From Candidatus Methanomethylophilaceae archaeon (GTDB taxonomy: Archaea > Thermoplasmatota > Thermoplasmata > Methanomassiliicoccales > Methanomethylophilaceae), in the NCBI GenBank assembly GCA_017468935.1, contig JAFUHJ010000120.1, forward strand, positions 4,567 through 68,566: a stretch of 64,000 nucleotides of DNA, written 5' to 3'. A model generated the notes under the pieces. It did not search any database, had not been told where the DNA came from, and saw only the letters and a program-made list of their open reading frames with translations. Every line of letters begins with the position of its first letter. Position 1 is the stretch's first letter. This document shows, in pieces, positions 5,011 to 64,000 of this stretch. The translations under genes and the position numbers were made by a program.

Positions 5011-6594
5011 ATGGGGCTCATGAATGGGATAAACAAGACGATCATGGCGGTCGTCTCGTCAATTGCACTCGTGTACTCGGGGCTATGCTTCTTCTTGACG
5101 CTCCACGGGTACATCAGCGGAGAAGGGGACCCTATACACTTCTATGTCTTCTTCCCAACGGATCTCTCCAACATCAACCTGGAGACATTGGGATTCGACA
5201 TCACCGCATGGATGATGTCCACGATACCGGCGCTCTATGACAGCATAGGCGACATCGGACTCTTCCAATGGATGTACGATAAAATCTTTGATCTGATCAC
5301 AGACATCGATTCCAAGATGAAATTCTACAGCGTCATGGTCATGCTCCTCATCGGTTTCATCCTCGCAGCGGCAGGTTTCATCTCCAAACCCGCTTCCGAC
5401 TGTACCGGACAGACCAATCCGGCAGAATATCTCTGGACCCACAGGCCGAATGCGTTCGCCAAGTGCCTTGCTATGCCCTGGGGGATCATCCTCGGAGCCT
5501 GGAACAAGAACAAGGTCCTAGTCATCGTACCGATCCTGCTCCTGCCCCTGTACGCCCCGTGGGCCCTGATGATCACCATCGCGCTGATCATCCCCTTCCT
5601 TCTTGTGAAGCTCGTTATCGGCTCAAAGATAACTTCTGCCGCCAAGAAGGAGAGCATCGAATACCAGAAGAACACGGATTTCGGAGTCTGTCCCCACTGT
5701 AAGATGAGCTTCGAGAGACCGAAGATCAAATGCAAATGCGGACTCATACTGGATTACCCCGTGCCCAACATCTACGGATACACGGTGCACTACTGCAACA
5801 AGGGACACGAGATCCCCTGTACCAGCGGAAAGAGGGCCAACCTCACCACCATCTGCCCCCACTGTGCGAAACAGATCCAGACCAGGGAGGCCCGCCCGAT
5901 CACCATCTCCATGGTAGGAGGAACGAACACGGGAAAGACATCGCTCATGCTCTCCGCCGTGGACACGATCACCCGCTGCGCCAGGACGGTGGATGTCACT
6001 GTGGACAGCCCCTCATCGGGACTGTCGAAGGAGGCCATCGCCGCCAAAGACTATGCTCCGAGGACCGTTCCCGGTGAGACCGAATCTCAGATCCTGTTCC
6101 TCAGGTCAATGAAACTCCAGGACAGGGAAATAGTCTTCAACGACGTGTCCGGAGTGGAATTCCAGCCTGCCGTGGACAAGGTGCTCTTCGAAGAGTACTA
6201 CAACTACACCGACGGGTTCATCTTCACCTTCGATCCGCTCGCGTTCAACAGAGAGTACCTCAGGGAGACGCCTCACGAGGTGTTCGAGAGCTTCCACTAC
6301 ATGTACACCACCATCAGGGGGATCGGACCATCTGCAAAGACCGATGTACCTTTCGCCGTCGTCGCCACGAAGAACGACCTAATGAACCTCAAGCTCAAGG
6401 ATGAGGACGTCAGGCAGTACCTTGTGGATAACGGCGAGGAGAACTTCGTCGCCGTGGTGGAATCGCTGTTCAGCGAAGTGAGATACTTCGCCGTAACCGC
6501 ACACGGATCGGACTGCGGATCGTCGATGAGACCTGTATGGTGGATCGTCGAGCACGTTGACAGGAAACTGACGGAACTCATACCTTCCGCATAA
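5011..6594 (+). CDS. membrane-anchored zinc-ribbon P-loop GTPase (uncharacterised family)
   Basis: N-terminal ~240 aa have about five hydrophobic helices. CxxC pairs follow (CPHCKMSF..CKCG; ICPHCAKQI). Then GTPase motifs: G1 GGTNTGKTS, G3 DVSG, G4 TKND. A TATA-like AAAATATATTT at 4989-4999 makes the ATG at 5011 or 5020 possibly leaderless. Confidence 0.7.
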   Translation: MGLMNGINKTIMAVVSSIALVYSGLCFFLTLHGYISGEGDPIHFYVFFPTDLSNINLETLGFDITAWMMSTIPALYDSIGDIGLFQWMYDKIFDLITDIDSKMKFYSVMVMLLIGFILAAAGFISKPASDCTGQTNPAEYLWTHRPNAFAKCLAMPWGIILGAWNKNKVLVIVPILLLPLYAPWALMITIALIIPFLLVKLVIGSKITSAAKKESIEYQKNTDFGVCPHCKMSFERPKIKCKCGLILDYPVPNIYGYTVHYCNKGHEIPCTSGKRANLTTICPHCAKQIQTREARPITISMVGGTNTGKTSLMLSAVDTITRCARTVDVTVDSPSSGLSKEAIAAKDYAPRTVPGETESQILFLRSMKLQDREIVFNDVSGVEFQPAVDKVLFEEYYNYTDGFIFTFDPLAFNREYLRETPHEVFESFHYMYTTIRGIGPSAKTDVPFAVVATKNDLMNLKLKDEDVRQYLVDNGEENFVAVVESLFSEVRYFAVTAHGSDCGSSMRPVWWIVEHVDRKLTELIPSA

Positions 6595-9714: not shown

Positions 9715-10029
9715 CTACACGCCCGAGATTATCGAGTCCGCCTTCTCTTTGCCATAGTATGTCCCGATGTTCGAAAAGAAGATCTCCGCCTCCTCCGAGG
9801 ATTGGAAAAGGAGATGCGTGACGTTGCCCCTCTTCAGTTGCATGAAGAGATGGAGCTGTGCGTTGCTGGCGGTAACCTTGTCATGCTTGCCGTCTGCATC
9901 ATCGATGACGGTCACTCCGAAAGTCTCTATACCTTTGCTCTTTGCAAGCTCAGTCTGATCCTTCAGAAGACTTCCCACTGTGGTGAATCCCAATACGGCC
10001 ATGATATCAGAACCTGTATCCTTCATCAT
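9715..10029 (-). CDS. hypothetical small protein (only TAG-terminated ORF seen in the window)
   Basis: ORF 9715-10068. Candidate starts are at 10068, 10029/10026 and 10002, and the upstream gene stops at 10007. No family recognised. The stop codon is TAG. Confidence 0.45.
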   Translation of the reverse strand: MMKDTGSDIMAVLGFTTVGSLLKDQTELAKSKGIETFGVTVIDDADGKHDKVTASNAQLHLFMQLKRGNVTHLLFQSSEEAEIFFSNIGTYYGKEKADSIISGV

Positions 10030-10834
10030 ACTTTTTGAAATCTTCGTATTTGTACGGAGGTTTGACACCCAGACTCCAGAAGTAGTATTCCGGGTGGAAG
10101 TATCTGCCGCGGTCCTGGGTCAGGTCGGAGATCTGTATGGCCTTCTTCGGGCACATGTTGATGCAGCTCATGCACATGGAGCACTGGAGCTCATCCCATA
10201 CCGGCTTCCTGTGATACACCTTGATGATCTCTTCGGGACAGACATGTTCGCATATCCTGCATTCAATGCACTTCTCGTCTATCGTGAACTGCTCCGTGTT
10301 CCTGAAATCGAAGTACTGCTCCCTGGCCTCGTCGAAGGAATCGCATCCGGCCATCGTGCGGAAATCGCCTTTCTCCTTCTTGCCGAGCGATTCGATTATC
10401 CCACTAATCGTGACATCCGCGGCATCGTTTATCCTCTTGGCCTCATCCTTGTCGGGAACATCCTCGTAGTAGACTGCGTTCTCCGGCATCAGCACATCAT
10501 AGAACGCATCGACCTTCAGCCTCTTACCGAGTATCTCCTGGAGCTGTTCGCATGCCTTGCCTGATTCCCCAGCACAGGTTGATACCGCATACACATGCCC
10601 GGGCTTGACTATCTCCACCATCTCCAAGAACTCCTCGACCACCGAAGGCAGCCCGTGATAGTAAACGGGGAACACGAATCCGACATCGTTCCCTTCCGCG
10701 TTGTAGAATTTGCGCTTATACTTCACTGCAGCGGCCATCTCGACCATGTCCGATTTGAATGCGGTTGCGATCATTTTCGCTGCATGGTACGAGTTACCGG
10801 TCCCGGAGAACACGAAGATCATGATAAACCGCAT
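10007..10834 (-). CDS. flavodoxin-domain + 2x[4Fe-4S] ferredoxin fusion (EFR1-family-like)
   Basis: MRFIMIFVFSGTGNSYHAAK is a flavodoxin-like start. The C-terminus carries two CxxCxxCxxxCP motifs (CIECRICEHVCP, CSMCMSCINMCP). Confidence 0.8.
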   Translation of the reverse strand: MRFIMIFVFSGTGNSYHAAKMIATAFKSDMVEMAAAVKYKRKFYNAEGNDVGFVFPVYYHGLPSVVEEFLEMVEIVKPGHVYAVSTCAGESGKACEQLQEILGKRLKVDAFYDVLMPENAVYYEDVPDKDEAKRINDAADVTISGIIESLGKKEKGDFRTMAGCDSFDEAREQYFDFRNTEQFTIDEKCIECRICEHVCPEEIIKVYHRKPVWDELQCSMCMSCINMCPKKAIQISDLTQDRGRYFHPEYYFWSLGVKPPYKYEDFKKYDEGYRF

Positions 10835-10961
10835 CAGATACTCGGATATAACCGATGTGCCCTCGATCAATCCAGAAGGGCGAACAGGACCTGGTGTGGG
10901 ACGCATTCTTGTTCGGAATCCTCTGAAATAGATTAATTACTGCAAATGCCATTGCCCGGAC

Positions 10962-12176
10962 ATGGCAATCGCGAACGAGACCGAAATCAGGATCAAGGAT
11001 GACATCTATTGGATAGGCGGGGACGACAGGACGGCAGGACTGTTCGAAGGATCCTTTCCCATACCCGAAGGTGTCTCATACAACTCGTACGTGATCACCG
11101 ACGAGAAGACGTGTCTGCTGGACACATGCGATGCATCCATTTTGTCGAAGTTCTGGAAGAACTTCAGGCACGTTATGGACGGTCGCGAACTCGATTACTT
11201 CGTCATCAACCACATGGAACCGGACCACGGTGCAGCCATCATCCAGGTCCTCGATGCGTACCCCAATGTGACCGTTGTGGGCAACAGCAAGACGTTCGAT
11301 ATGCTCGACAACTTCTACCAGATCAAACCGGCGAACAGGCTGGAGGTCAAGGAGGGCGATGAGCTATGCCTCGGAAAGCACACACTGAAATTCTACTTCG
11401 CAGTCATGGTCCACTGGCCTGAGGTCATGTTCACCTACGACATGAAGGACAGGATACTATTCTCGGCAGATGCCTTCGGAACGTTCAAGACACTATCCGG
11501 TGCCCTCTATGCGGATGAGGTGGATTTCGACAGGGACTACCTGAGCGAGGCCAGAAGGTACTATGCCAACATCGTAGGCAAGTACGGTTCCAAGGTACAA
11601 TCGATCTTCGGCAAACTGGAAGGAGTGCAGATCGACATGGTCTGTCCCCTTCACGGACCCATTTGGAGAGGGGAACAGATCGGATACATCATGGAGAAGT
11701 ACATCACCTGGAGCCTCTATGAGCCCGAGGAGAAGGGGGTCGTCATCGCATACACCTCCATGTATGGCAACACCGCCGCTGTGGCCGACAAATTGGCTCT
11801 CCTCCTCAAGAGCAAGGGCGTGGAGAAGGTCACCATGTACGATGTCACAAGGACTCACCCCTCGTATGTTGTGGGTGATGCCTTCAGGTTCAGCAACATC
11901 GTGCTGGCTGCACCCACATACAACAACAACCTCCATCCTACCATGTCCGCCGTCATCGAGGATATGGAAATAATGACCGTCCAGAACAGGAAATACTCCC
12001 TGATCGGCAACGGATCGTGGGCGCCCCAGTCGCCCAAGATAATGGAGGATAGGATGTCGTCATTGAAGGGCATGACCAAGGTCGGCGAGACATTCGTCAT
12101 CAAATCCTCCATGCGCCCGGAGCAGATGGCAGATCTCGAAAGGTTGGCAGACGACATCGTCGGATCGATGAACTGA
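10962..12176 (+). CDS. fprA: flavodiiron protein (FprA-type O2/NO reductase)
   Basis: Metallo-beta-lactamase-like domain with NHMEPDHGAAI di-iron motif, plus a C-terminal flavodoxin domain (VVIAYTSMYGNTAAVADKLA). Confidence 0.9.
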   Translation: MAIANETEIRIKDDIYWIGGDDRTAGLFEGSFPIPEGVSYNSYVITDEKTCLLDTCDASILSKFWKNFRHVMDGRELDYFVINHMEPDHGAAIIQVLDAYPNVTVVGNSKTFDMLDNFYQIKPANRLEVKEGDELCLGKHTLKFYFAVMVHWPEVMFTYDMKDRILFSADAFGTFKTLSGALYADEVDFDRDYLSEARRYYANIVGKYGSKVQSIFGKLEGVQIDMVCPLHGPIWRGEQIGYIMEKYITWSLYEPEEKGVVIAYTSMYGNTAAVADKLALLLKSKGVEKVTMYDVTRTHPSYVVGDAFRFSNIVLAAPTYNNNLHPTMSAVIEDMEIMTVQNRKYSLIGNGSWAPQSPKIMEDRMSSLKGMTKVGETFVIKSSMRPEQMADLERLADDIVGSMN

Positions 12177-12252
12177 TGTCAGCACCAAAGGTCAATCGTC
12201 AAGGTCATAATTAACCGCCAAGTAATTATAACTCCGATTGGATTAGACGGGC

Positions 12253-13257
12253 ATGGCCTTTACCATAAGACTCTGCCCCTATTGCGGCGGAGCCATCTCC
12301 TCGGATGAGGCAGGATACTATGTCTGTTCTGAATGTGAGAAACGCACATTCAGATCCAGGTCCAATGCGAAGGCATTCCTGCTCAACAAACCATACGAGA
12401 ATGAATATCTCCAGATAATCAACCAGATTGACAGCGACCCTGAGAAATCCGTGGATGCGATGGACGATATCATCAACAACTCCGAGGAAGAACCCGAAGC
12501 CGACATGTTCTTCGTGCGCGGCATAGCCTATGCGGCCATGGGGGAGGAAGGTAAGGCACACTCGGATTGGAAGAAGGGCCTGGATCTCATCACGGACCTT
12601 CGTTTTATCGATTCATACATCATAGCCGTGTGCAAACGCATCGTCGACATGACATGTATGAAGGAGCGCGAATACATAGCATTCAATCCGATCGAATACA
12701 TCGATGCCATCTCGACGGAATTCGGGGTGAAGGCAGAGGTCTCGTGCAAAGGCATCTTCTACATCACAGTCTACAGGAACTTCAGGATGAAGCACCAGTC
12801 GGGTGAACTGGATGACGATCCGGAGATCTACCCTACGATCATTCCGAAACTGCTGACCAAGATTCTTTCTTACGGTCGTGACTTCCGTACGGTCAACAAC
12901 ATCATCGAAGAGATCCTCGAGGACTTCCATTACGATCCCGACACATATGTGGAGGACGACAATCTGAAACTCCATATGTGCAGCCTTCTGAAATCGGAAT
13001 ACGAATCCCTGACGGAGAACTTCAGCGATGAGCACAAGGCCCGCATCTTCAAGCATTGGAACGATGCCAACATGTTCGACCTGGAGTACTGGATGGATGA
13101 ACTCATGAAATCTGTGAAGGACGACAACATCCTTCAGAAGCTGCGTTCGTTCGGTGCCCCCAGAGAGGACTTCGACCTCAACAACGCCGTAGAGGATTAC
13201 GCCAGGAAGTTCCTTCTTCTATCCGAAGACGGAAAGGACCTCTCAGAGGAATCCTGA
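12253..13257 (+). CDS. hypothetical protein with N-terminal zinc ribbon and helical body
   Basis: CPYCGG...-x-CSECEK zinc ribbon at the N-terminus, one TPR-like segment (FFVRGIAYAAMGEEGKAHSDWKKGLDL), and an acidic helical remainder. No family recognised. Confidence 0.55.
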   Translation: MAFTIRLCPYCGGAISSDEAGYYVCSECEKRTFRSRSNAKAFLLNKPYENEYLQIINQIDSDPEKSVDAMDDIINNSEEEPEADMFFVRGIAYAAMGEEGKAHSDWKKGLDLITDLRFIDSYIIAVCKRIVDMTCMKEREYIAFNPIEYIDAISTEFGVKAEVSCKGIFYITVYRNFRMKHQSGELDDDPEIYPTIIPKLLTKILSYGRDFRTVNNIIEEILEDFHYDPDTYVEDDNLKLHMCSLLKSEYESLTENFSDEHKARIFKHWNDANMFDLEYWMDELMKSVKDDNILQKLRSFGAPREDFDLNNAVEDYARKFLLLSEDGKDLSEES

Positions 13258-53445: not shown

Positions 53446-55134
53446 TCACTTGAGTCCGACGATCTTTCCGTCGTCCATGAGGTCCATCCTCATCGCTGCG
53501 GGGACCTTGGGCAGACCGGGCATGAGCGTCAGTGTACCGCATTCTGGGACGATGAATCCGGCTCCGGCGGAGATGTTGATCTCCCTGACATGGAGCTTCC
53601 ATCCCTTGGGCACACCCTTCATAGTCGAGACATCGGACAATGATGCCTGGGTCTTGGCGATACAGATGGGGAGGTTTCCGAATCCGTCCTTCTCGTACCC
53701 CTCGATCCTCTTGTCAACCAAGGGGTCGTAGGTGACTCCGTCCGCTCCGTAGATCTTCTTCGCAATGATCTCGATCTTGGACTTGATGGGTTGGTCGAGG
53801 TCGTAGAGGAACTTGAAGTCAGTCTTGGTGCTGTCGATGGTGTCGATAACGGTCTGAGCGAGCTGCTTCGCTCCCTCTCCACCCTTGATGAATCCGTCGT
53901 TGAATGCCACGGGGATTCCCATCTTCTTGCAGTGGTCGCGGATGTAGTCCATCTGCTCCTGTGTATCCTGTGCGAAGTGATTGATACCGACTACCACGGG
54001 GACGCCGTATGAGCTCATGTTCTCGATGTGCTTGTCGAGGTTGCACATTCCCTTCTCGAGGGCCTCGATCGTGAGTGTGGACTCGTCGTCGAGGACTCCT
54101 CCTCCGTGAGTCATCAGGGCCTTGACGGTAGCGACGATCACGACACAGGAGGGCCTGAGACCGGATTCCCTGCAGACGATGTCCATGAACTTCTCTCCTC
54201 CCAGATCGGAAGCGAAACCGGATTCCGTCACGACATAGTCGGCCAGCTTCAAGGCCGTCCTCGTGGCGATTATCGAGTTGTTCCCGTGAGCGATGTTAGC
54301 GAACGGGAATCCGTGGATGAACACGGGCTGTCCCTCGAGGGTCTGCACGAGGTTGGGGTTGATGGCGTCCTTGAGGATGACCATCATTGCACCGACGCAT
54401 TTGAGGTCCTTGACGGTGACGGGTTTGTTGTCGTATGTGTATGCGACAACGATCCTCTCGAGCCTTGCCCTGAGGTCGGCACGGTCCTTGGCCAGACAGA
54501 GGATGGCCGCGATCTCGGATGCCGATGTGATGATGAATCCAGACTCATGTGGGACTCCGCCCTTGATCTTGTCCTTTCCAAGACCTGTGACGATGTTCCT
54601 GAGTTCACGGACGTTCATGTCGACGGTCTTTCTCCACACGACACGTGCGGGATCGATTTGCAGAGGGTTGTCCCTGACGAGCTCGTTGTCCACGATGGCG
54701 GACAGGAGGTTGTGAGCCGCTGCGACTGCGTGGATGTCTCCTGTGAAGTGGAGGTCTATATCCCACATGGGGTACACCTGGGCATATCCTCCGCCGGTCG
54801 CTCCTCCCTTGATTCCGAAGGTGGGTCCAAGCGAAGGCTCCCTGAGTGCTCCGACGACGTTCTTTCCGAGTGCACCGAGTCCCTGCATCAGACCGATGGA
54901 TGTGACCGTCTTACCCTCCCCTGCGGGAGTGGGGGTGATGGCAGTGACCATGACGAGCTTTCCGTCCTTCTTGTCCTTGAGTTTCTCCAGGTTCTCGATG
55001 GGGACCTTTGCGATGTACTTTCCGTAAGGGCTGATGTCGTCCTCTGTGAGACCGATCTTAGCTGCAATTTCCTTGATTGGTTTGGGATTCGCCTCATAGG
55101 CGATCTCGATGTCAGATAACATGATGGGTGCCAT
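53446..55134 (-). CDS. fhs: formate--tetrahydrofolate ligase
   Basis: SDIEIA, TPTPAGEGKTVTSIGL, PSLGPTFGIKGGATGGGY and FANIAHG are FTHFS signatures. An alternative Met at 55122 fits the TATA-like element at ~55146-55154. Confidence 0.95.
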   Translation of the reverse strand: MAPIMLSDIEIAYEANPKPIKEIAAKIGLTEDDISPYGKYIAKVPIENLEKLKDKKDGKLVMVTAITPTPAGEGKTVTSIGLMQGLGALGKNVVGALREPSLGPTFGIKGGATGGGYAQVYPMWDIDLHFTGDIHAVAAAHNLLSAIVDNELVRDNPLQIDPARVVWRKTVDMNVRELRNIVTGLGKDKIKGGVPHESGFIITSASEIAAILCLAKDRADLRARLERIVVAYTYDNKPVTVKDLKCVGAMMVILKDAINPNLVQTLEGQPVFIHGFPFANIAHGNNSIIATRTALKLADYVVTESGFASDLGGEKFMDIVCRESGLRPSCVVIVATVKALMTHGGGVLDDESTLTIEALEKGMCNLDKHIENMSSYGVPVVVGINHFAQDTQEQMDYIRDHCKKMGIPVAFNDGFIKGGEGAKQLAQTVIDTIDSTKTDFKFLYDLDQPIKSKIEIIAKKIYGADGVTYDPLVDKRIEGYEKDGFGNLPICIAKTQASLSDVSTMKGVPKGWKLHVREINISAGAGFIVPECGTLTLMPGLPKVPAAMRMDLMDDGKIVGLK

Positions 55135-55190
55135 TCATTATGCATAAATAATAGTAGTTGCGAGCGCCACCTGAAATAGTTCTAGATTTG

Positions 55191-55231
55191 TTAGGCTACC
55201 CTAAATTTATATATTATTTAGTTGTTCCTAA
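55191..55231 (+). promoter_or_regulatory. operator-TATA-operator module 1: TTAGGCTACCCTAA - ATTTATATATTAT - TTAGTTGTTCCTAA
   Basis: Two 14-nt TTAG(G/T)-N4-CCTAA inverted-repeat boxes (55191-55204, 55218-55231) flank a TATA element. The half-sites equal those of the DtxR box. No ORF lies downstream on the plus strand. Confidence 0.6.
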
Positions 55232-55271
55232 ATTTGTCAAGTTCCGACCCAAAAGTCGGTTGACGCAGAGA

Positions 55272-55293
55272 CCGGGGATCGGGGGGTCTCCGG
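55272..55293. repeat. 22-nt G-rich repeat copy A (CCGGGGATCGGGGGGTCTCCGG)
   Basis: Matches copy B at 20 of 22 positions. The two copies fall in different reading frames of the minus-strand 68-aa ORF. Confidence 0.8.
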
Positions 55294-55404
55294 ATCTGCA
55301 AACCGTTTAGTGTAGCAAGAAGTCGGAGGACCGTCAATAGCCTCATGGATGTAACCGATAATCATTCGGTTCTGCGATGACTGATACATCATTAGTAACC
55401 TCAG

Positions 55405-55426
55405 CCGGGGGTCGGGGGGCCTCCGG
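55405..55426. repeat. 22-nt G-rich repeat copy B (CCGGGGGTCGGGGGGCCTCCGG)
   Basis: Direct repeat of copy A, 133 nt downstream. Confidence 0.8.
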
Positions 55427-55497
55427 CAATATTCTTTCTCCAATCGATTGTACCAGTACAGCAGGGGTCATCGGAAATTTAACACATGGAAAATTTT

Positions 55498-55541
55498 TTA
55501 GTTTCTCCTAAACTATATATATCGTTTTTAGGTATTCCTAA
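55498..55541 (+). promoter_or_regulatory. operator-TATA-operator module 2 (feoA promoter): TTAGTTTCTCCTAA - ACTATATATATCGTTT - TTAGGTATTCCTAA
   Basis: Same 14-nt box twice (55498-55511, 55528-55541) around a TATA. Box 4 ends 2 nt before the feoA ATG, which implies a leaderless feoA mRNA and promoter occlusion by a repressor. Confidence 0.65.
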
Positions 55542-55543
55542 TC

Positions 55544-55831
55544 ATGAGTCAAATAGATCCTGTGCCCGTTTCAATGCAAGCGGACAATGGGGCAAGCAAG
55601 ATGCCGACCATTCCAAGTTCGTTCCTCAGAGTGGGTCAGATAGCAACAATCGACAAAATCTCTGGATCGGAAGAGGTCAGGAAATTCCTTGCAGGACTCG
55701 GATTTGTGCGTGGCACGCCGATCAAAGCAGTCAGCAACAACAACACTGGACTAATTTTTGAAGTCAAAGGTTCCAGGGTTGCGGTTGACTTGAAAATGGC
55801 TACCAAGATCCACGTTGCCAGCGAGAGCTGA
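55544..55831 (+). CDS. feoA: FeoA-domain protein
   Basis: LRVGQIATIDKISGSEEVRKFLAGLGFVRGTPIKAV...GSRVAVDLKMATKIHV is the FeoA SH3-like pattern. Confidence 0.8.
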   Translation: MSQIDPVPVSMQADNGASKMPTIPSSFLRVGQIATIDKISGSEEVRKFLAGLGFVRGTPIKAVSNNNTGLIFEVKGSRVAVDLKMATKIHVASES

Positions 55832-55835
55832 TAGT

Positions 55836-56057
55836 ATGACTACTTTGAAGGAAACTTCCATTGGCTCGACCGTCAAGGTCAAGAAGGTCAACGGAGAAGG
55901 AAACCTGAAGAGACACATCATGGACATGGGCATCACCAAAGGTGTCGAAATCTATGTCCGTAAGGTCGCCCCTCTCGGAGATCCCGTGGAGATCACCGTG
56001 CGCGGCTATGAGCTGAGTCTCAGAAAGGAATATGCGGAGATGATCGAGGTCGAATGA
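55836..56057 (+). CDS. feoA: FeoA-domain protein
   Basis: GSTVKVKKVNGEGNLKRHIMDMGITKGVEIYVRKVAPLGDPVEITVRGYELSLRKEYAEMIEV. ATG at 55836 chosen. Confidence 0.85.
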   Translation: MTTLKETSIGSTVKVKKVNGEGNLKRHIMDMGITKGVEIYVRKVAPLGDPVEITVRGYELSLRKEYAEMIEVE

Positions 56058-56107
56058 CCCAGTGATCCCCGGGCCGCCGTTTATGGCACGGCGGCTTGAA
56101 GGAGTGT

Positions 56108-58276
56108 ATGAACATGAGTTTCACAATAGCATTGGCCGGAAACCCGAACTGCGGTAAGACCACCTTGTTCAACGCATTGACAGGTGCTTCCCAGCGTGTC
56201 GGAAACTGGCCCGGAGTTACTATTGATAAGAAGGTCGGAAAGATCAAAGGAACTGACTCCGAACTCGTCGACCTTCCCGGTATCTACTCCCTGTCACCCT
56301 ACTCCCCTGAGGAGATCGTGTCAAGGAACTACATAGTGAATGATAACCCTGACGGTATCATTAACATTGTTGACGCTACGAACCTCGAGAGGAACCTCTT
56401 CCTCACGCTTCAGATCATCGATATGGGTAAACCCGTTGTCATCGCCCTCAACATGATGGATGAGGTCGAGAAACAGGGCGACAAGATCGATGCAGAGAAA
56501 CTGTCGGCAAGACTCGGTGTCCCGGTCATCCCCATCTCCGCAAAGGAGAAGAGGAACATCGACAAACTGGTCAGTGCCATTACAGACGCAGCCGAGAAGA
56601 AGACCGAGCCCAAGTACGTCAGGTACAACGATTCCATCGAGGCAGCCGTCGACGCCGCGGAGAAGGCGCTCGAGGGCAAGATTCCCGGAAGCCCCAGATT
56701 CTATGCATTCAAGCTCGTCGAGGGCGATGATGCGGTCATGCAGGCCGTTCCCGGTGCCAGGGAATCCATCTCGGAAGCAATCAACAATCTGGAGAAGGAG
56801 TTCGACGACACCGCCGACTCCGTCATCACAGACAGCAGGTACGAGACCATCACTGACATCGTCTCTTCAGCCTACGAGAGGGCACCCAGGGACGAGAGGG
56901 GAACACTCTCCGACCGTGTCGACAGGATCGTCACCAACAGGATCCTCGGACTGCCTATCTTCATCCTGATCATCGGATTCGTCTATTTCGTCGCCATGTA
57001 CGACGGAGACCTCGGTACATCCCCTGGAGCATGGGCCACCGGATGGCTTAACGACTTCATCAGCGAAACTGTCATCCCTGCAGCACAGGAATGGTGCGAG
57101 AGTGCCGGTGTCAGCGAAGCCCTAACAGGATTGCTATGTGACGGAATTCTTTCAGGAGTCGGTGCAGTCATCGGATTCCTGCCTCAGATGATCGTTCTGT
57201 TCATCTGTCTGGTCATCCTCGAAGAAGTAGGATACATGGCCCGTGTCGCATTCGTCATGGACCGTATCTTCAGATACTTCAACCTCTCGGGAAAATCATT
57301 CATTCCCCTTATCGTCAGTACCGGATGCGGTGTGCCCGGAGTCATGGCCACCAGGACCATCGAAAGCGAATCGGACCGCCGTATCACTGCCATGACATGC
57401 ACATTCATGCCCTGCGGTGCGAAGCTGCCTGTCATCTCAGCCATCGCCGGAGCCCTAGCAGGAAGCGTCTGGGTCGCCGTCTTCGCATATGTGATGGGTA
57501 TCGTCCTGGTCATCATCTCCGGTATCATCATCAAGAAATTCCACGCGGTATCCGGAGCTCCCGCACCTTTCATCATGGAGCTTCCGCCCTACCACATGCC
57601 CGGATTCGTGACCTGTGCCAAGACCGTCTTCGACAGATCATGGGCGTTCGTGAAGAAAGCAGGTACCATCATCCTGCTCGCTATGATCCTCGTATGGTTC
57701 CTCAAGTCATTCAGCTGGTCCTTCACACTCCTCTCAGAGGAAGAGATGGGCGATTCTATCCTTGCCAGCATCGGAGGCGTACTGAGCTATCTGTTCATGC
57801 CTCTCGGATGGGGCGACAGTTGGGAGCTCCCCGCAGCATCCATTACCGGTCTCATCGCCAAAGAAGACCTCATCGGAACCCTTGAGCTCCTGATCGCAGC
57901 ACCCTTCGACATGGATGTATCCGAAGCACTCGATCTGCTCGGAACCAAGATGGCCGGAGCCGCTGGTCATGCAATGATCCTCTCGTTCTTCACCTTCAAC
58001 ATGTTCTGCGCACCCTGTTTCGCGGCTGTAGGAGCGATTCACAGGGAACTTGGAACCTGGAAGGCGACCGGATTCGCATTCCTGTACCAGTGTCTGCTCG
58101 CATACTTCGTTGCGGTCATCGTATTCGTGGTCTCGGCAGCCGTTATGGGCGCAATGTCGGATGTCCCGTGGTATTCGATAATGTTCGCAATCATCGACGC
58201 CGTCATCCTGGTCTACTTCCTGGTAGTCAAGGATCCGTTCAAGCCCTTCCGCAAGAACACCGAGGTGGCCGAATGA
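56108..58276 (+). CDS. feoB: ferrous iron transporter FeoB
   Basis: G domain (IALAGNPNCGKTTLFNALTG, DLPGIYSL, ALNMMD) followed by a polytopic membrane domain with gate motifs. Candidate ATG at 56108 or 56114 after the SD-like AAGGAG. Confidence 0.93.
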   Translation: MNMSFTIALAGNPNCGKTTLFNALTGASQRVGNWPGVTIDKKVGKIKGTDSELVDLPGIYSLSPYSPEEIVSRNYIVNDNPDGIINIVDATNLERNLFLTLQIIDMGKPVVIALNMMDEVEKQGDKIDAEKLSARLGVPVIPISAKEKRNIDKLVSAITDAAEKKTEPKYVRYNDSIEAAVDAAEKALEGKIPGSPRFYAFKLVEGDDAVMQAVPGARESISEAINNLEKEFDDTADSVITDSRYETITDIVSSAYERAPRDERGTLSDRVDRIVTNRILGLPIFILIIGFVYFVAMYDGDLGTSPGAWATGWLNDFISETVIPAAQEWCESAGVSEALTGLLCDGILSGVGAVIGFLPQMIVLFICLVILEEVGYMARVAFVMDRIFRYFNLSGKSFIPLIVSTGCGVPGVMATRTIESESDRRITAMTCTFMPCGAKLPVISAIAGALAGSVWVAVFAYVMGIVLVIISGIIIKKFHAVSGAPAPFIMELPPYHMPGFVTCAKTVFDRSWAFVKKAGTIILLAMILVWFLKSFSWSFTLLSEEEMGDSILASIGGVLSYLFMPLGWGDSWELPAASITGLIAKEDLIGTLELLIAAPFDMDVSEALDLLGTKMAGAAGHAMILSFFTFNMFCAPCFAAVGAIHRELGTWKATGFAFLYQCLLAYFVAVIVFVVSAAVMGAMSDVPWYSIMFAIIDAVILVYFLVVKDPFKPFRKNTEVAE

Positions 58277-58725: not shown

Positions 58726-59655
58726 TCACAGACCGTCTATCTTTATGAATTGGGTGTTCTGTTTCCTGCGGAGATCGTCAAGGAACTGCTTGGCTAGCTG
58801 ATTCCCTGCGTTGGCGGAACGCCCGAACCTTCTCATAGCCTCCTCAACATTCTGCGCAGCCCCAAGGCCCTCGAACAGCATCCTTGCGGTCATGAACAAG
58901 GCATCGCCATCCTCGGTGCTGGATACCCTATCGTATAACTCGAATGCCTTGTTGAAATCCCTATTCACACCCCTTCCCTCGTAATACATGGTGCCGAGGT
59001 TGAACATCGCGGGTGCAAAGCCTTGCTCCACCGCTTTCTCATACCATTGCAGTGCGACCTTGTCCCCGCCGGGGATCGCCCCTGACTCGGCCATCCTGGC
59101 CATCCTGAACTGTGCCTCCGGGATCCCGGCCTCTGCGGACTTCCTGAACCATTCCGCTGCCTTCTTCTCATCCTTGGTCATCCCGACACCTTCAGATGCC
59201 AGATAGCCCATCATGAACATGGACTGTGCGTTACCTGAATCGGCTGATAGCTTGTAGTAATGGAGCGCCTTGTCGGCATCTGCTGCTACGCCGTACCCGT
59301 ACAGGTATATCGCTGCGATCTCGGGATATGCCAATTCCACCCCGTTCTCTGCCGCCTTCTCGAACCAGTATCTGCATTGTTCCTGATCCTCCGGATACCC
59401 GTAGGAACCTGTGAAGATGCTTCCGAGCCTGAACATGGCCGGAGAGTTACCGGCCTCTGCGGACCTCTTGTAGAGCTCCACGGCACCCTCGACATCCTTC
59501 GGTGTCCCCATGCCGTTTATCTTCATCTCCGCAAGGCCGAACCAGCCTTCCGGCGATCCCAATTCACCGGCGCGGGTGAAGAGAGCGACTGCCCTCTCGG
59601 GATTCCTCTCGTAGCAATTGACGGCCTGCATGCAGTACTCCGACGGGTCTTCCAT
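58726..59655 (-). CDS. Sel1-like repeat (SLR) protein, no signal peptide
   Basis: About seven SLR units (AVELYKRSAEAGNSPAMFRLGSIF..., AAEWFRKSAEAGIPEAQFRMARM...). ATG at 59655 chosen; a TTG lies at 59688. Confidence 0.82.
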   Translation of the reverse strand: MEDPSEYCMQAVNCYERNPERAVALFTRAGELGSPEGWFGLAEMKINGMGTPKDVEGAVELYKRSAEAGNSPAMFRLGSIFTGSYGYPEDQEQCRYWFEKAAENGVELAYPEIAAIYLYGYGVAADADKALHYYKLSADSGNAQSMFMMGYLASEGVGMTKDEKKAAEWFRKSAEAGIPEAQFRMARMAESGAIPGGDKVALQWYEKAVEQGFAPAMFNLGTMYYEGRGVNRDFNKAFELYDRVSSTEDGDALFMTARMLFEGLGAAQNVEEAMRRFGRSANAGNQLAKQFLDDLRRKQNTQFIKIDGL

Positions 59656-59722
59656 GACCCCTGGATAGACGTGGTCAGATAAATGCAATCGGTATATCTA
59701 CGATGAATGCCATCCATCGGTC

Positions 59723-59920
59723 ATGATAAAAGGGCCTTTGGTCTATGCCGCGATGATCCTCGCCGCACTTCTGATGATCATCTCGGCGGTCGTGATCCTG
59801 AACAGGGACCTGTTCGTAGAGAACTCGGACCTGATCATGATCGTTTCGGGAGTCATCGCTCTCGGAGTCATAATCGTCCTCGTGATGATGCTGATTCGCA
59901 CGTGGAATCGCAACCCTTGA
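59723..59920 (+). CDS. small two-TM membrane protein
   Basis: 65 aa. LVYAAMILAALLMIISAVVIL and IMIVSGVIALGVIIVLVMMLI. No family recognised. Confidence 0.5.
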   Translation: MIKGPLVYAAMILAALLMIISAVVILNRDLFVENSDLIMIVSGVIALGVIIVLVMMLIRTWNRNP

Positions 59921-60033
59921 AACCCTTTATTTCCGCCTTTTCCAGAGTTTACGAAAATCGTTAAACGATAGTACACGTTTACAAAGTAAAGCCGTCACCT
60001 TTTATACTCTACGAATTTCGCAGAACCGAATCC

Positions 60034-60066
60034 TTTATATTTTATAGGGAAAAAACGATAGCGTTT
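60034..60066 (+). promoter_or_regulatory. Hsp70-vWA promoter: TATA-like TTTATATTTTATAGG followed by palindrome AAACG-ATAG-CGTTT
   Basis: The TATA element lies ~30-40 nt upstream of ATG 60078, and a 14-nt palindrome (60053-60066) sits between the TATA and the ATG. Confidence 0.45.
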
Positions 60067-60077
60067 CCGATGGGATT

Positions 60078-62108
60078 ATGAAGGTAGGTATAGACCTCGG
60101 AACAACATACTCTGCAGTAGCAAGATATGATAAGGCGTCGAACAAACCGGTCATGCTGAACAACTCGTTCGGTAAGGAGATCACCCCCTCGGTCATCTGT
60201 TTCCTTGATGACGGGGACATCCTGGTCGGAGAGGACGCCAAGGATATGCAGTCGAACGGAACTGGTGTCAACGCTGCGGCTTTCAAGCGCAACATGGGTG
60301 ACGGATCCATCGTTGTCAGCTTCAACGGCAAGGACTATACGGCGGAAGACCTCTCAGCCATGCTCCTCAAGCACCTGATCGAGGATGCTGAGAAAGCAGC
60401 GGGCGAGAAGATCGATGAAGCGGTCATCACGGTCCCCGCATACTTCGAGGACGCTCAGAGAACCGCTACGAAGCGCGCGGGAGAGGCTTGCGGGATCAAG
60501 GTCCCCAAGATCATCAACGAGCCCACGGCGGCCGCCATCTCATACGGATACAAGCACTCGGCCGACAAGACCCTCCTGGTCTATGACCTGGGAGGAGGAA
60601 CGTTCGATGTCACGATTGTTAGGGTCACAAAAGGAAGCATAGAGGTCATCGGTACGAACGGAAACCACATCCTCGGAGGAAAGGACTGGGACGCGGCCAT
60701 CGTCAAGTTCGTATGCGACAGGTTCGTCAACGAGTTCGATGTGGACCCCAGGGATGACCTTCCCACCAAGAACGAGCTCATCGTGGCGGCAGAGGGATAC
60801 AAGAAGACACTGTCCATCGCCGAGAGCGTTACGATCCCGATAAACTACGAGGGATGCAGCGAGAAGTACACCCTCACCAGGGATGAATTCGAATCAATGA
60901 CCGAGCACCTGATGAATGCGACCAAAGAGGTCTGCGAGGATCTGATGGATTCGCTCGGAATGCAGTGGACAGACATCGACGAGATCCTCCTGTGCGGTGG
61001 ATCCACAAGGATGCCGGGCGTCGCGAAGTTCCTGAAGAGCTTCACCGGACGCGAGGTCGTCACACACAGCGATACCGACCTGGCCGTCGCGAAGGGAGCA
61101 GCCATCACAGCCGAGCTCTACAGCAGCAACGCCACCGGAATGAGGGCCGCCATGCAGGTGTCCGATGTCACTGCGCACAGTCTCGGAGCACTCTCAGTCA
61201 GTCAGGACGGGAAGAAGTACGTCAACGAGATCATGATCAAGAGGAACTCCAAGGTCCCCAGCACATGCAAGAAGCAGTTCTCCATCAAACCGGGCAACAT
61301 GACCGACAAGATCGAGGTCTACACCCTGCAGGGAGAATCGAGGATCCCGCTGGACTGTAACGTCCTTGCAAAAGTGGTCATCACAGGCTTCTACAACGAC
61401 GGAAAAGGAGTCATCATCGATATAGAATACAATTACGACGAGAACGGAATCGTCAACATCAGGGCATCGCAGGGCGAGGAGCCCCTCGACGTCAAGTCCG
61501 AGCCCGTTCCCGACGACATAAGGTGGATGGGCGGAGACCCGCACGACAAGCCTTCAGACGTGAAGATCGCCAAGAACATAGCGATCTGCGTCGACCTCTC
61601 CAGGAGTATGGAGGGAGAACCCATCGAGGCCGCAAAGGATTCGATCCGCAGCTTCGTACGCACCCTGTCCGACGAACAGACCAAGTTCTCGCTCATCGGA
61701 TTCGGGGACAAGGTCAAGGTCGTCCAGGAACTCACCAATGACACCGACGTCATCATCAACTCCATCGAGGAGCTCAAAGTCAAGATGCTCGGAAGGGGAA
61801 CCGACGCCAGCCCGCTGGACACAGCGAGGATGGTCATCGGAGGCCAGCCCGGAGTGGGCATCATCGTCGTACTCACGGACGGAATCTGGGGTAAGAGGGA
61901 CAATGCAGTGGACCAGGCTCTCGGCTGCAGGACCGATGGAATAACCATAATCGCCATCGGACTCGGAGAGGCGGACACATCGTTCCTCAGGCAGATCGCC
62001 ACCGTCGATGACGGTGCCCTGTTCACGACCATCGACAAGCTCGGTGACACCTTCGGAACCATCGCAACCGCGATCTCTGCAGGAAACATGGGTCTCGCTG
62101 TCCGCTGA
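60078..62108 (+). CDS. non-canonical Hsp70 (actin-fold ATPase + SBD-beta) fused to a C-terminal von Willebrand factor A domain
   Basis: Hsp70 motifs: VGIDLGTTYSAVA, INEPTAAAISYG, VYDLGGGTFDVTIV, LLCGGSTRMPGV. An SBD-beta-like region follows (AHSLGALSV...), with no helical lid or EEVD. The last ~165 aa form a vWA domain with an intact MIDAS (DLSRS, GTD, LTDG). Confidence 0.88.
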   Translation: MKVGIDLGTTYSAVARYDKASNKPVMLNNSFGKEITPSVICFLDDGDILVGEDAKDMQSNGTGVNAAAFKRNMGDGSIVVSFNGKDYTAEDLSAMLLKHLIEDAEKAAGEKIDEAVITVPAYFEDAQRTATKRAGEACGIKVPKIINEPTAAAISYGYKHSADKTLLVYDLGGGTFDVTIVRVTKGSIEVIGTNGNHILGGKDWDAAIVKFVCDRFVNEFDVDPRDDLPTKNELIVAAEGYKKTLSIAESVTIPINYEGCSEKYTLTRDEFESMTEHLMNATKEVCEDLMDSLGMQWTDIDEILLCGGSTRMPGVAKFLKSFTGREVVTHSDTDLAVAKGAAITAELYSSNATGMRAAMQVSDVTAHSLGALSVSQDGKKYVNEIMIKRNSKVPSTCKKQFSIKPGNMTDKIEVYTLQGESRIPLDCNVLAKVVITGFYNDGKGVIIDIEYNYDENGIVNIRASQGEEPLDVKSEPVPDDIRWMGGDPHDKPSDVKIAKNIAICVDLSRSMEGEPIEAAKDSIRSFVRTLSDEQTKFSLIGFGDKVKVVQELTNDTDVIINSIEELKVKMLGRGTDASPLDTARMVIGGQPGVGIIVVLTDGIWGKRDNAVDQALGCRTDGITIIAIGLGEADTSFLRQIATVDDGALFTTIDKLGDTFGTIATAISAGNMGLAVR

Positions 62109-62118
62109 AGGAGTTAAC

Positions 62119-64000
62119 ATGGCTAGTAAGACAGACAACTACTGTCAACTCCTGGGTCTCGACCCTTACAACGAAAGCAAGTACTCCCTAGACAAGATCA
62201 ACGAGAAGATAGACAAGATGGAAGTCAAATGGGCCAACGAGTTCAGGAACAAGCAGAACGACACTGGCCAGCGCTTCAAGTACCACAAATTGGTGGATGA
62301 AGTGCCGGAGATGAAACGCTGCATGGCCGACCCGATGCTCAGGAGAAAGGTCTTCTCGGAAGGAAAGAAGAGCCTCGAGGGCAAGGTCCAGAGACTCAAG
62401 CTCGACTGCGTCATACTCACGGACGGCAGATACATCATCCTGCCGGGATTCCTGGACAACTTCGTCAAGAGGCTGCACTGGGACGGAGTGGACAAGAAGC
62501 AGATCCTGAAGATCGCGGGCATCAGCGAAGGCACCGTCCCCAAGATCGTCAGCGAGAAGGTCGTCAACGCCTTCACCAACCTGACTACAGTGGACGCCTA
62601 CACTCCTGTCGAAGTACTCAATGTCCTCATCACGAATCCGGACCTGGAGATCAGGTGCGACCCCCTGACGGAGGCCAGCTCACTCGCCCAGGTCAGGAAC
62701 GCGTTCGAACTGTGCGAGAAGAGGGTCAACAGCGTCAGGCAGGACATCCTGCCCGACCAGGATTCCTACATATCGGTGCTCAGGAGCCTCAAGCTCATCA
62801 TCGATTCGGACAAGGAGATGAAGGACCTCATCAACTACGGAAGATGCTACAAGGCCCTCGTCCCCGTCATGGAGATGATCGACAAGGAATACACAGGACA
62901 GCAGCTCTCCAGGAACTACATCGACGACCTGATGAACATCTATGTCAGGGGACTCGACCAGGACATGTGCATCAACATCCTCCAGGCCTACTGCCACAAG
63001 AAGAGGATCGCTGCCAACTTCTCTAAGCTGGACAGCACCATGATCAGATGCCCCGAGTGTAACAACATGGTCCCCGGCGGGAAGAACACGATGTTCTGCC
63101 CCTACTGCGGTAAGAACTTCAAGATAGTCTGCCCGCAGTGTAACACGGCACAGCAGTCCAGCAACGGCATCTGTATCAAGTGCGGTTTCAACTTCAAGGA
63201 CGGAGAGACCAAGGCCCAGAACCTCGCCTTAGGATTCCGCATGGACATCCAGAAGGGTAACCTGACCAAGGCGGAGAAGGACCTGTCGATGCTGAAGACC
63301 ACCTACGCGACCTTTGCCGGCATCGCCGGCATGGAGGTCCAACTCCGCAAGGAACAGGGTACGTTGAACACCCTGAAGAACATGGTCAACGACAACCATA
63401 GGAACAACAAGTACTACGCCGCGAAGAGCGCCGGAGACACCATCGTCAGCAGATATCCGAGCGAGATGGTCAACTATCCGGATGTCAAGCAGAGGTACGA
63501 TGAATCCCTGCAGCGCGTCCAGCATGCGGATGTGTTCGTCCATCAGGCTGAGGCCACGGAGGACAGGAACCAGATGCTCTCGCTGTATGTGAGTGCCGCA
63601 GAGGAATGTCCCGACCATCCGTCGGCAAAGGGTGTGCTGAAGCAGTATCCTCCAGCAGGACCTGCTGATCCCGTTGCACAGATCAAGGACGGACGCCTCG
63701 TCATCAAGTACGAGCCCCCCAGCGACAGCAGTGGAGTCACATACGCCATCTACAGGGAGAAGAACTCCCTTCCAAACGTTACCGAGGAGACACGTCCCCT
63801 GACGGAGATACCCGGTACGGTATACACCGATAAAACCCTCGAGCCCGGTATAGAATACTACTATTCCGTATACTCTAAGCGCTGGGGCATCCTATCCAGG
63901 GAAGCGGCCCACTTCGGACCGGTCATATTCCTTGCGGAGGTCGAGAGGGTCACCATCGACCAGATCGACGGAGGACTTCGCCTCATGTACGAGAAGCCCC
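62119..64000 (+). CDS. large multidomain protein, 3' end outside window: degenerate J-like N-terminus + helical region + double zinc ribbon + FN3-like domain
   Basis: Hand translation is open from ATG 62119 to the window end (627 codons, no stop), which is why it is absent from the ORF track. N-terminal DNYCQLLGLDPYNESKYSLDKINEKIDKMEVKW resembles J-domain helices I-II without HPD. Zinc ribbons: CPECNN..CPYCG..CPQCN..CIKCG. A later segment GVTYAIYRE...YTDKTLEPGIEYYYSVYS is FN3-like. Confidence 0.8.
   Translation, partial: MASKTDNYCQLLGLDPYNESKYSLDKINEKIDKMEVKWANEFRNKQNDTGQRFKYHKLVDEVPEMKRCMADPMLRRKVFSEGKKSLEGKVQRLKLDCVILTDGRYIILPGFLDNFVKRLHWDGVDKKQILKIAGISEGTVPKIVSEKVVNAFTNLTTVDAYTPVEVLNVLITNPDLEIRCDPLTEASSLAQVRNAFELCEKRVNSVRQDILPDQDSYISVLRSLKLIIDSDKEMKDLINYGRCYKALVPVMEMIDKEYTGQQLSRNYIDDLMNIYVRGLDQDMCINILQAYCHKKRIAANFSKLDSTMIRCPECNNMVPGGKNTMFCPYCGKNFKIVCPQCNTAQQSSNGICIKCGFNFKDGETKAQNLALGFRMDIQKGNLTKAEKDLSMLKTTYATFAGIAGMEVQLRKEQGTLNTLKNMVNDNHRNNKYYAAKSAGDTIVSRYPSEMVNYPDVKQRYDESLQRVQHADVFVHQAEATEDRNQMLSLYVSAAEECPDHPSAKGVLKQYPPAGPADPVAQIKDGRLVIKYEPPSDSSGVTYAIYREKNSLPNVTEETRPLTEIPGTVYTDKTLEPGIEYYYSVYSKRWGILSREAAHFGPVIFLAEVERVTIDQIDGGLRLMYEKP

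Follow-up and report, generated by a model that had tools for sequence, protein, structure and literature searches.

What can a J-like protein do for an Hsp70 if it does not have the His-Pro-Asp (HPD) tripeptide? It is a rule of Hsp70 biology that J domains act through HPD, and a gene pair that raises this question lies at one end of a stretch of 64,000 nucleotides (nt) from a Candidatus Methanomethylophilaceae archaeon (Thermoplasmatota, Methanomassiliicoccales; GenBank assembly GCA_017468935.1, contig JAFUHJ010000120.1, positions 4,567 to 68,566 of the forward strand), which in the following is called the window. There, the gene of an Hsp70 fused to a vWA domain (Hsp70-vWA) is directly followed by an open reading frame (ORF) for a protein with a J-like head, here called the partner. 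From comparisons of sequences and from structure models we consider it probable, although by no means certain, that the partner is a dedicated, non-canonical J-type adaptor and scaffold of a specialised Hsp70 machine of this archaeon.

The partner ORF translates as 627 codons without a stop and is still open where the window ends (Table 1). As the initial annotation had noted, it begins exactly 10 nt after the stop codon of the Hsp70-vWA gene (junction CGC TGA AGGAGTTAAC ATG), and the presence of GGAG in the spacer before the partner ATG suggests that the two genes are translationally coupled. The ORF had also rightly been described as missing from the ORF list, because this listing omits frames that run off the window. 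All peptide strings that had been quoted for it (DNYCQLLGLDPYNESKYSLDKINEKIDKMEVKWANEF; CPEC, CPYC, CPQC, CIKC; GVTYAIYRE...LEPGIEYYYSVYS) are present. A protein identical to Hsp70-vWA is encoded on longer public contigs. Two of these (L002 and L005) match the window ORF at 1877 of 1881 nt (99.8%), and on them the frame runs on to a stop that gives a protein of 998 amino acids (aa), of which the window ORF encodes residues 1–627, the first 63%. The full-length protein is composed of the J-like head, a helical middle, a double zinc ribbon, TPR-like helices, a proline-rich linker and five beta-sandwiches, at least two of which are fibronectin type III (FN3) domains. It contains neither a signal peptide nor a transmembrane segment and is cytoplasmic. 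Its AlphaFold2 (AF2) model has a predicted local distance difference test score (pLDDT) of 86 and a predicted template modelling score (pTM) of 0.37, a combination that indicates domains modelled with confidence in a flexible arrangement. The initial annotation had placed any effector domain beyond the window. The remainder of the 998 aa holds no enzymatic or effector domain, only four more beta-sandwiches, and the first of these starts where the window ends.

The relation of the head (J1) to J domains was examined by profile comparisons and structure models. The AF2 model of the head (pLDDT 82) has helices at residues 8–12, 24–44, 49–70 and 72–87, thus a short helix I, a long helix II, a loop, and helices III and IV. 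In hhalign the archaeal heads match nine canonical J domains with 71–75% probability (E ~3e-5); each of the nine is recognised as PF00226 at E ≤ 1e-31. In control comparisons the probability did not exceed 1% for the other domains of the partner, or 0.6% for J alignments that had been reversed or column-shuffled. A family-wide head profile built from 43 diverse members raises the probability to 95.3% (E 2.3e-8), and at positions 5–70 the family-wide profile matches J domains in the PDB, namely those of DNAJB8 (1.4e-5), DNAJA3, DNAJC3 and Thermus DnaJ2 (these four at 1e-5 to 1e-2) and also that of DNAJB2. It should be noted, however, that the J signal in PDB searches is seen with the family-wide alignment only and not with archaeal-only profiles. 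A small hidden Markov model (HMM) of canonical J domains, run on 258 family members, gave 99 weak domain matches, all but one of them at J1 or at a second J-like position (J2) further downstream, and PF00226 itself matches three of 43 distant relatives (best E 1e-3). J domains stand foremost in the Foldseek list of the head and make up about 10 of its 30 top matches (query TM score 0.36–0.60, none with E below 0.4); the list includes 1wjz, DNAJB1 chimeras, the "pseudo DnaJ" 2cug, 4j7z, 5vso, 2qsa, RAC and HscB (0.60). Judged by these profiles and models, the head, which had at first been called J-like from its sequence, is a genuine but degenerate J-domain derivative without HPD.

The AF2 model gives the head the helix order of the canonical J domain (PF00226), with a predicted hairpin of helix II, loop and helix III, and in sequence the two share the motifs at the start ([DN]YY.LLG[LV]) and end (D-P-x-x-R-x-x-[FY]) and a basic helix II. 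The head differs in that helix II is about 1.5 turns (about six residues) longer and its W is separated from the loop by 6 residues, in that it is not matched by PF00226, and in that the loop is K45-Q46-N47-D48 rather than HPD. The absence of HPD at the expected place, already pointed out in the initial annotation, is a property of the whole family, since the tripeptide is found in 0 of 134 family representatives. K45, Q46 and N47 do not vary among 36 orthologues, in which D48 is conserved to at least 90%, and the loop aligns with a remnant, NHP[TSKR], that is present in about 30 of the 134 representatives, all of them distant. J folds without HPD also occur elsewhere. For example, Pam16/Tim16 are eukaryotic HPD-less J-like proteins that tether or restrain without stimulating ATP hydrolysis, and 2cug, which has a J fold without HPD, is among both the Foldseek and the HMM matches. 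Beyond the J fold there is no known sequence relationship of the head to Pam16 or 2cug, and, unlike these, the head is fused to a scaffold of about 900 aa and co-encoded with its own Hsp70s, GrpE and GTPase.

The region that follows the head had been described as long and helical. It is indeed mostly helical, but at the level of the family it holds a second J-like domain, which corrects the picture. At positions ~158–230 the family profile again matches J domains (those of E. coli DnaJ, CbpA, DNAJC5 and DNAJA1), and hhalign gives 89.6% (E 1.9e-6) for J2 of the wider family. The small canonical-J HMM matches J2 in distant members only. That J2 could be recognised within the archaeal clade alone was rejected (hhalign 0.6%); in the window protein it is, from the sequence, identifiable by position only (aa ~158–245), with a loop R207-Q208-D209.

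Of the three models with which a search had been suggested (DnaJ, DZR and fn3), DZR alone matched in Pfam and NCBIfam scans of the window protein. Against a gathering score of 27.3, Pfam DZR (PF12773) reaches 26.3 bits with the window fragment, slightly too low, and 27.9 bits with the full-length protein. Four CxxC pairs are present (C311/C314, C327/C330, C338/C341 and C352/C355), and their eight cysteines are invariant in 36 close relatives and, with C314 and C352 at 90% or more, also in 43 distant ones. Positions 295–355 of the family profile match DZANK1 and archaeal zinc-ribbon proteins, and the full archaeal-only profile, when compared with the PDB, retrieves zinc ribbons only. The double zinc ribbon proposed at the outset is confirmed; its pLDDT is about 60. 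It is followed by a run of helices that form hairpins in the AF2 model. There, positions 356–490 of the family profile match the TPR repeats of OGT and BamD, and Pfam TPR models match four of the 43 distant relatives. Among the domains compared in the 36 orthologues this TPR-like region has the lowest mean pairwise identity (41%), the head being at 57% and the double zinc ribbon highest at 64%.

Behind the proline-rich linker the AF2 model shows beta-sandwiches at aa 516–605, 612–692, 704–795, 799–892 and 896–990. Foldseek aligns them with four-domain FnIII fragments of fibronectin (E 7e-12 over ~400 columns), and positions 494–709 of the family profile match titin and fibronectin (4e-9 to 1e-7). 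Pfam fn3 (PF00041) is without a match on the window protein and matches 11 of the 43 distant relatives. Sandwiches 1 and 2 are related to each other (hhalign 86%), whereas sandwiches 3–5 have no sequence link to FN3. The FN3-like module of the initial annotation thus turned out to be part of a longer array: the C-terminal half of the partner is, by modelled fold, an FN3 array, with at least two of its five domains assignable to FN3. Tandem FN3 folds are what the partner has in common with fibronectin and titin; it differs from these in being cytoplasmic and archaeal, and in that only two of the five sandwiches are related by sequence. That the FN3 domains are hypervariable sensors was considered and rejected, their conservation in the 36 orthologues being no lower than that of the head.

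The pairing of an Hsp70 paralogue with a dedicated J-like protein, from which the initial annotation had deduced a specialised Hsp70 system, holds in so far as the two genes are linked, but the pair belongs to a larger operon. On the contigs L001, L002 and L005 the order is Hsp70-vWA (676 aa), partner (998 aa), a zinc-ribbon DO-GTPase (417 aa), a GrpE-like protein (279 aa) and a second Hsp70 (523 aa). The first two genes are 10 nt apart, partner and GTPase genes abut (0 nt; in L001 the GTPase gene begins at the base after the partner stop), and each of the last two genes overlaps the one before it by 4 nt. A Usp gene on the opposite strand closes the cluster. The GTPase (L001, 15039–16292) is matched by DO-GTPase2 with 31.3 bits (gathering score 27) and by DZR at residues 86–118, and contains two N-terminal Cys-rich ribbons, a Walker-B glutamate and the motifs GPKGVGKS, DTAGE and TKSD. 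The GrpE-like protein scores 30.7 bits with Pfam GrpE (gathering score 25.8). Hsp70-vWA is matched by Pfam HSP70 (E 1e-110) and VWA (E 3e-18) and has an intact metal-ion-dependent adhesion site (MIDAS; DxSxS...T...D), and the second Hsp70 (L001, 17125–18693) is likewise matched by Pfam HSP70. When aligned to E. coli DnaK, both paralogues keep the ATPase motifs and lack the helical lid, which in Hsp70-vWA is replaced by the vWA domain. Both also lack about 24 residues of subdomain IB of the nucleotide-binding domain. Arg167 of DnaK, the counterpart of the HPD Asp in the contact with DnaJ, is a Lys in one paralogue and a Thr in the other, and is not Arg in seven of the eight system Hsp70s examined at four loci. 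This loss would fit an altered contact between J-like head and Hsp70.

A dedicated Hsp70 paralogue that is encoded beside its own J-type protein is also found in the HscA-HscB system. HscB, however, keeps HPD, and HscA keeps the lid and needs no GrpE, whereas here two Hsp70s without a lid, one of which carries the vWA domain, are accompanied by GrpE and GTPases. Also considered were the Hsp70-like modules of CoCoNuT systems; these are different, having degenerate ATPase motifs and being fused to McrB or McrC.

How widespread is this arrangement? A word-indexed search retrieved 109 partner homologues of about 1000 aa with 44–97% identity, of which those with a name are from Methanomethylophilaceae, Thermoplasmata or Candidatus Methanoplasma. 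A scan of one genome per species gave 67 loci, all from Methanomassiliicoccales except for four in bins with bacterial titles. These four (L026, L027, L031 and L047, titled Lachnospiraceae, Bacteroides ovatus, Bifidobacteriaceae and Ruminococcus) carry the archaeal operon and synteny, and the contigs are probably mis-binned. In tblastn searches of the loci from these 67 species-level genomes with the five operon proteins, the five-gene order, and with it the linkage of partner and Hsp70-vWA, was kept in every locus with enough flanking sequence. Identities to the L001 proteins are 56–94% for Hsp70-vWA, 36–88% for the partner, which evolves fastest, 47–91% for the GTPase, 42–71% for the GrpE-like protein and 60–95% for the second Hsp70, and the flanking genes for a Sel1-repeat protein (upstream) and Usp (downstream) are often conserved as well. 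In this archaeal family the operon looks vertically inherited and syntenic, not mobile.

The partner family as a whole is much larger. An exhaustive profile search gave 4177 matches at E ≤ 1e-3, many of them collinear over about 1000 aa with ~20% identity. The gene context was analysed for three distant members and for two GAP1 homologues. In L073 the order is GrpE, Hsp70, Hsp70-vWA, partner, DO-GTPase2, GAP1-N2/M and, further on, a GTPase with transmembrane helices; L077/78 (Methanoregula sp., 1–22000) has the same gene set flanked by an integrase and transposases; and L080 carries GAP1 and an FtsK-like ATPase and has an integrase beside it. These loci are complete versions of a published GAP1-containing system. 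The GAP1-containing Hsp70-GrpE DO-GTPase system is thus also present in Methanomicrobiales (Methanoregula, Methanofollis), and, flanked there as it is by an integrase and transposases, it is mobile in other methanogens. L074, a highly divergent locus of the Methanomassiliicoccales type, is again of the short kind that lacks GAP1. Nothing further on the system came from L079 and the short contigs L075/76.

The published system is that of Kaur, Burroughs, Iyer and Aravind (2020; eLife 9:e52696; PMC7159879), who described by computation GTPase-centred "conflict systems" composed of double GTPases (DO-GTPases) and GAP1, and who proposed that these are threshold-type conflict (immune) systems. Their GAP1-N2 type comprises a GTPase with two N-terminal zinc ribbons, a second GTPase with transmembrane helices, and an FNIII-repeat protein. 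Some 14% of the GAP1-N2-type neighbourhoods, in actinobacteria and firmicutes, add Hsp70 and GrpE; some of these Hsp70-GrpE loci add a second Hsp70 without a peptide-binding domain, and in this theme the FNIII-repeat protein is fused to a DnaJ domain or TPR (Kaur et al., 2020). Neither a loss of HPD or degeneracy of the J domain nor a second J-like module is mentioned there (PMC7159879), and our literature search found no further paper on these systems.

The archaeal system shares with this theme the following components: the FNIII array with a DnaJ-like N-terminal module and TPR-like helices, Hsp70 and GrpE with a second Hsp70 that lacks the normal peptide-binding/lid part, the GTPase with two N-terminal zinc ribbons, and a second GTPase with transmembrane segments. 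Moreover, distant partner relatives of about 1000 aa adjoin GAP1-N2/M genes. There are also differences. The gene order of the archaeal operon is rearranged, with GrpE and Hsp70 placed behind the GTPase; the transmembrane GTPase is unlinked in the genome of the window; the locus is syntenic and vertically inherited across the family, whereas the neighbourhoods of Kaur et al. (2020) are mobile and variable; the FN3 domains are not hypervariable; and GAP1, there the constant partner of the GTPase, is not detected in the operon. An HMM built from 33 GAP1 proteins and run on every stop-to-stop segment found nothing at E ≤ 10 in the window and in 68 Methanomassiliicoccales loci (±10 kb); the search was confined to these sequences, and a distant GAP1 may exist elsewhere in the genomes. 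Nor does the partner hide GAP1 domains (hhalign ≤ 0.3%). In its gene content and synteny the archaeal operon is a GAP1-less, vertically inherited variant of a system type that has been predicted computationally.

How might such a machine work? In the mechanism that we favour, the J-like head would dock on one or both lid-less Hsp70s via its basic helix II and the invariant K45-Q46-N47 loop in place of HPD, and would thereby bring them to whatever the TPR/FN3 array holds. An HPD-independent docking of this kind would fit the loss of the residue equivalent to DnaK Arg167 in the Hsp70s of the system. The GrpE-like protein would reset the Hsp70s by nucleotide exchange, the MIDAS of the vWA domain could add a second, metal-dependent grip on peptides, and the zinc-ribbon GTPase, together with its membrane-anchored paralogue encoded elsewhere, could be the on/off switch. 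The apparatus would then have descended from the Hsp70-GrpE theme of the GAP1-N2-type DO-GTPase systems, without GAP1 and fixed in the chromosome.

Several observations weigh against the partner being a J-type adaptor. PF00226 is without a match at E ≤ 1 on both the window ORF and the full-length protein, a PDB search with the archaeal-only head profile (35 heads) retrieves no J domain up to E 10, and every Foldseek E-value for the head is above 0.4. Canonical J domains depend on HPD for the stimulation of Hsp70, and as the head has no HPD, stimulation may not occur at all. In both Hsp70s the linker between the domains has degenerated (from VLLLD to MQVSD or INVHN), so that classical Hsp70 allostery may have been lost. 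It may also be either of the two Hsp70s that is the partner of the head. And GAP1, a constant and defining component of the published system, was found neither by Pfam annotation of the L001 and L002 genes nor by tblastn with two GAP1 queries.

The main rival explanation, which we consider clearly less probable, is that the head is a pseudo-J domain, with the J fold retained but without stimulation of an ATPase. It would tether or restrain the Hsp70s or pair with another J-like module; the role of the partner as a scaffold would be passive, and it would be left to the GTPase to drive the cycle. The lack of HPD in all 134 representatives and the degenerate linkers and Arg167 position of the Hsp70s are what speaks for this, as does the "pseudo DnaJ" 2cug among the Foldseek matches, and the two tandem J-like modules of the family would permit J-J pairing. 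A dead relic, however, would not be expected to have an invariant K45-Q46-N47 at the HPD position; such invariance suggests a specific contact. Both Hsp70s have kept their catalytic motifs, and the retention of a GrpE-like factor in every locus is sensible only if the Hsp70s cycle nucleotide.

In a lesser rival explanation the partner has replaced GAP1 as the cognate of the zinc-ribbon DO-GTPase, the likeness to J domains being an evolutionary leftover without an Hsp70-directed function. We regard this as very unlikely. It is true that the partner gene always lies directly before the GTPase gene (0 nt in L001), that both proteins carry double zinc ribbons and that GAP1 was undetected in the loci searched. 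But no domain of the partner resembles GAP1 (hhalign ≤ 0.3%), the conservation of the head equals that of the other partner domains (57% versus 41–64%), and the adjacency is not specific to the loss of GAP1, because partner and GTPase genes follow each other in the same order in the GAP1-bearing loci L073, L077 and L080. Finally, an ORF that runs off the window and does not appear in a standard ORF list could be a chance frame, a pseudogene or an artefact of assembly at a contig edge. This can practically be dismissed, and indeed is refuted, by the intact frame of 998 aa in independent assemblies and the orthologues in 67 species-level genomes, besides the 109 close homologues of about 1000 aa, the 4177 family matches, and the invariant cysteines and fold elements.

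That relatives are found on mobile islands next to toxins fits the conflict-system proposal, and that the version of the archaeal clade is fixed, syntenic and without effectors fits a domestication. One can imagine, although as a specific scenario we hold it to be rather unlikely, that a formerly mobile conflict system was domesticated in Methanomethylophilaceae, lost GAP1 and became a fixed, vertically inherited housekeeping machine with HPD-independent coupling between J-like head and Hsp70 (K-Q-N loop, Hsp70s without Arg167). Such a machine might be a membrane-proximal, near-cytoskeleton apparatus for assembly or remodelling, in which two Hsp70s without lids would be combined with a vWA grip and an FN3 scaffold in the cytoplasm.

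The significance of these findings lies in the existence of a large family (4177 profile matches) with one or two J-like modules that never contain HPD and yet are always co-encoded with their own Hsp70s and, in the archaeal clade, also with a GrpE-like exchange factor. Should it be true that the heads drive or gate the Hsp70 cycle, there would be a second, HPD-independent way of coupling J-type proteins to Hsp70s. The archaeal version is the simplest form found: its five genes are tightly coupled, GAP1 and variable effectors are lacking, and it is kept across a family of methanogens from human and animal guts. As a minimal system it would therefore be practical to reconstitute. With it, the predicted DO-GTPase "conflict systems" also reach into a setting that looks fixed and akin to housekeeping, which bears on the question of whether these are really immune devices.

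Table 1. Positions in the window of the partner ORF, its domains and associated features
Feature	Position	Strand	Basis
Partner ORF, residues 1–627 of 998 aa, cut by window edge	62119..64000	+	Translation; L002/L005
J-like head J1, aa 5–96 (AF2 domain aa 1–96)	62131..62406	+	AF2, hhalign, family profile
Loop K45-Q46-N47-D48 between helices II and III, HPD position of J domains	62251..62262	+	Conservation, AF2
Mostly helical middle, aa 97–304	62407..63030	+	AF2
J2 position (degenerate second J-like domain), aa ~158–245	62590–62853	+	Family profile, hhalign
Double zinc ribbon, aa 305–358, four CxxC pairs	63031..63192	+	Pfam DZR, residues 311–356
TPR-like helical-hairpin region, aa 359–507	63193..63639	+	AF2, family profile
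Pro-rich linker YPPAGPAD, aa 508–515	63640..63663	+	Sequence; P511, P512 and P515 invariant
First FN3 domain, aa 516–605, signature GVTYAIYRE...YYYSVYS	63664..63933	+	AF2, Foldseek, family profile
Start of second FN3 domain, aa 606–695, rest and three further beta-sandwiches (to aa ~990) beyond window	63934..64000	+	AF2 full-length model
Hsp70-vWA gene, nucleotide-binding domain and beta part of substrate-binding domain, vWA replacing lid	60078..62108	+	Pfam, DnaK alignment
10-nt spacer AGGAGTTAAC with GGAG	62109..62118	+	Sequence
Upstream intergenic region, TTTATA-type boxes ~30–40 nt before Hsp70-vWA ATG	59921..60077	+	Sequence
ORF of 65 aa, two hydrophobic segments, next gene upstream of Hsp70-vWA	59723..59920	+	Same place in 23 loci
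Second DO-GTPase2 paralogue, hydrophobic N-terminal segments, zinc ribbons	5011..6594	+	DO-GTPase2 28 bits (gathering score 27)

Two further features of the window may belong to the system. The second DO-GTPase2 paralogue lies 56 kb from the operon here, and in 15 other Methanomassiliicoccales loci it is found on the opposite strand 2–4 kb downstream; it is probably a sixth, loosely linked component. Its longest ORF begins at 4900 and overlaps a pirin-like gene (3971–4990), and because of this overlap the true start is probably near 5011. The 65-aa ORF may encode an accessory membrane component, and the intergenic region between it and the Hsp70-vWA gene is, from its sequence, likely to contain an archaeal promoter.

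In PADLOC the partner, Hsp70-vWA and the Sel1-repeat protein were without a match, and no tRNA and no Rfam family were found in the 64-kb window. Precomputed Pfam annotation assigns PF25832 (Fn3_SaeA_2nd), PF25833 and PF25835 to some members of the partner family (P0003, P0013–15, P0019 and P0104, and L073 at 10001–12973), so that a named relative may exist; a literature search on "SaeA" gave nothing relevant, and the name could not be traced. The Sel1-repeat protein (8 repeats; 58726–59688, reverse strand) is encoded divergently beside the operon, a position that is kept in most related loci, with more Sel1 paralogues a few kb further upstream (L001, 340–3324). Upstream of these features, at 53446–58276 of the window, are housekeeping genes for formate-tetrahydrofolate ligase (reverse strand), two FeoA and FeoB, and from L001 it is seen that genes for a FeoB-associated peptide and a rubredoxin are also located upstream.

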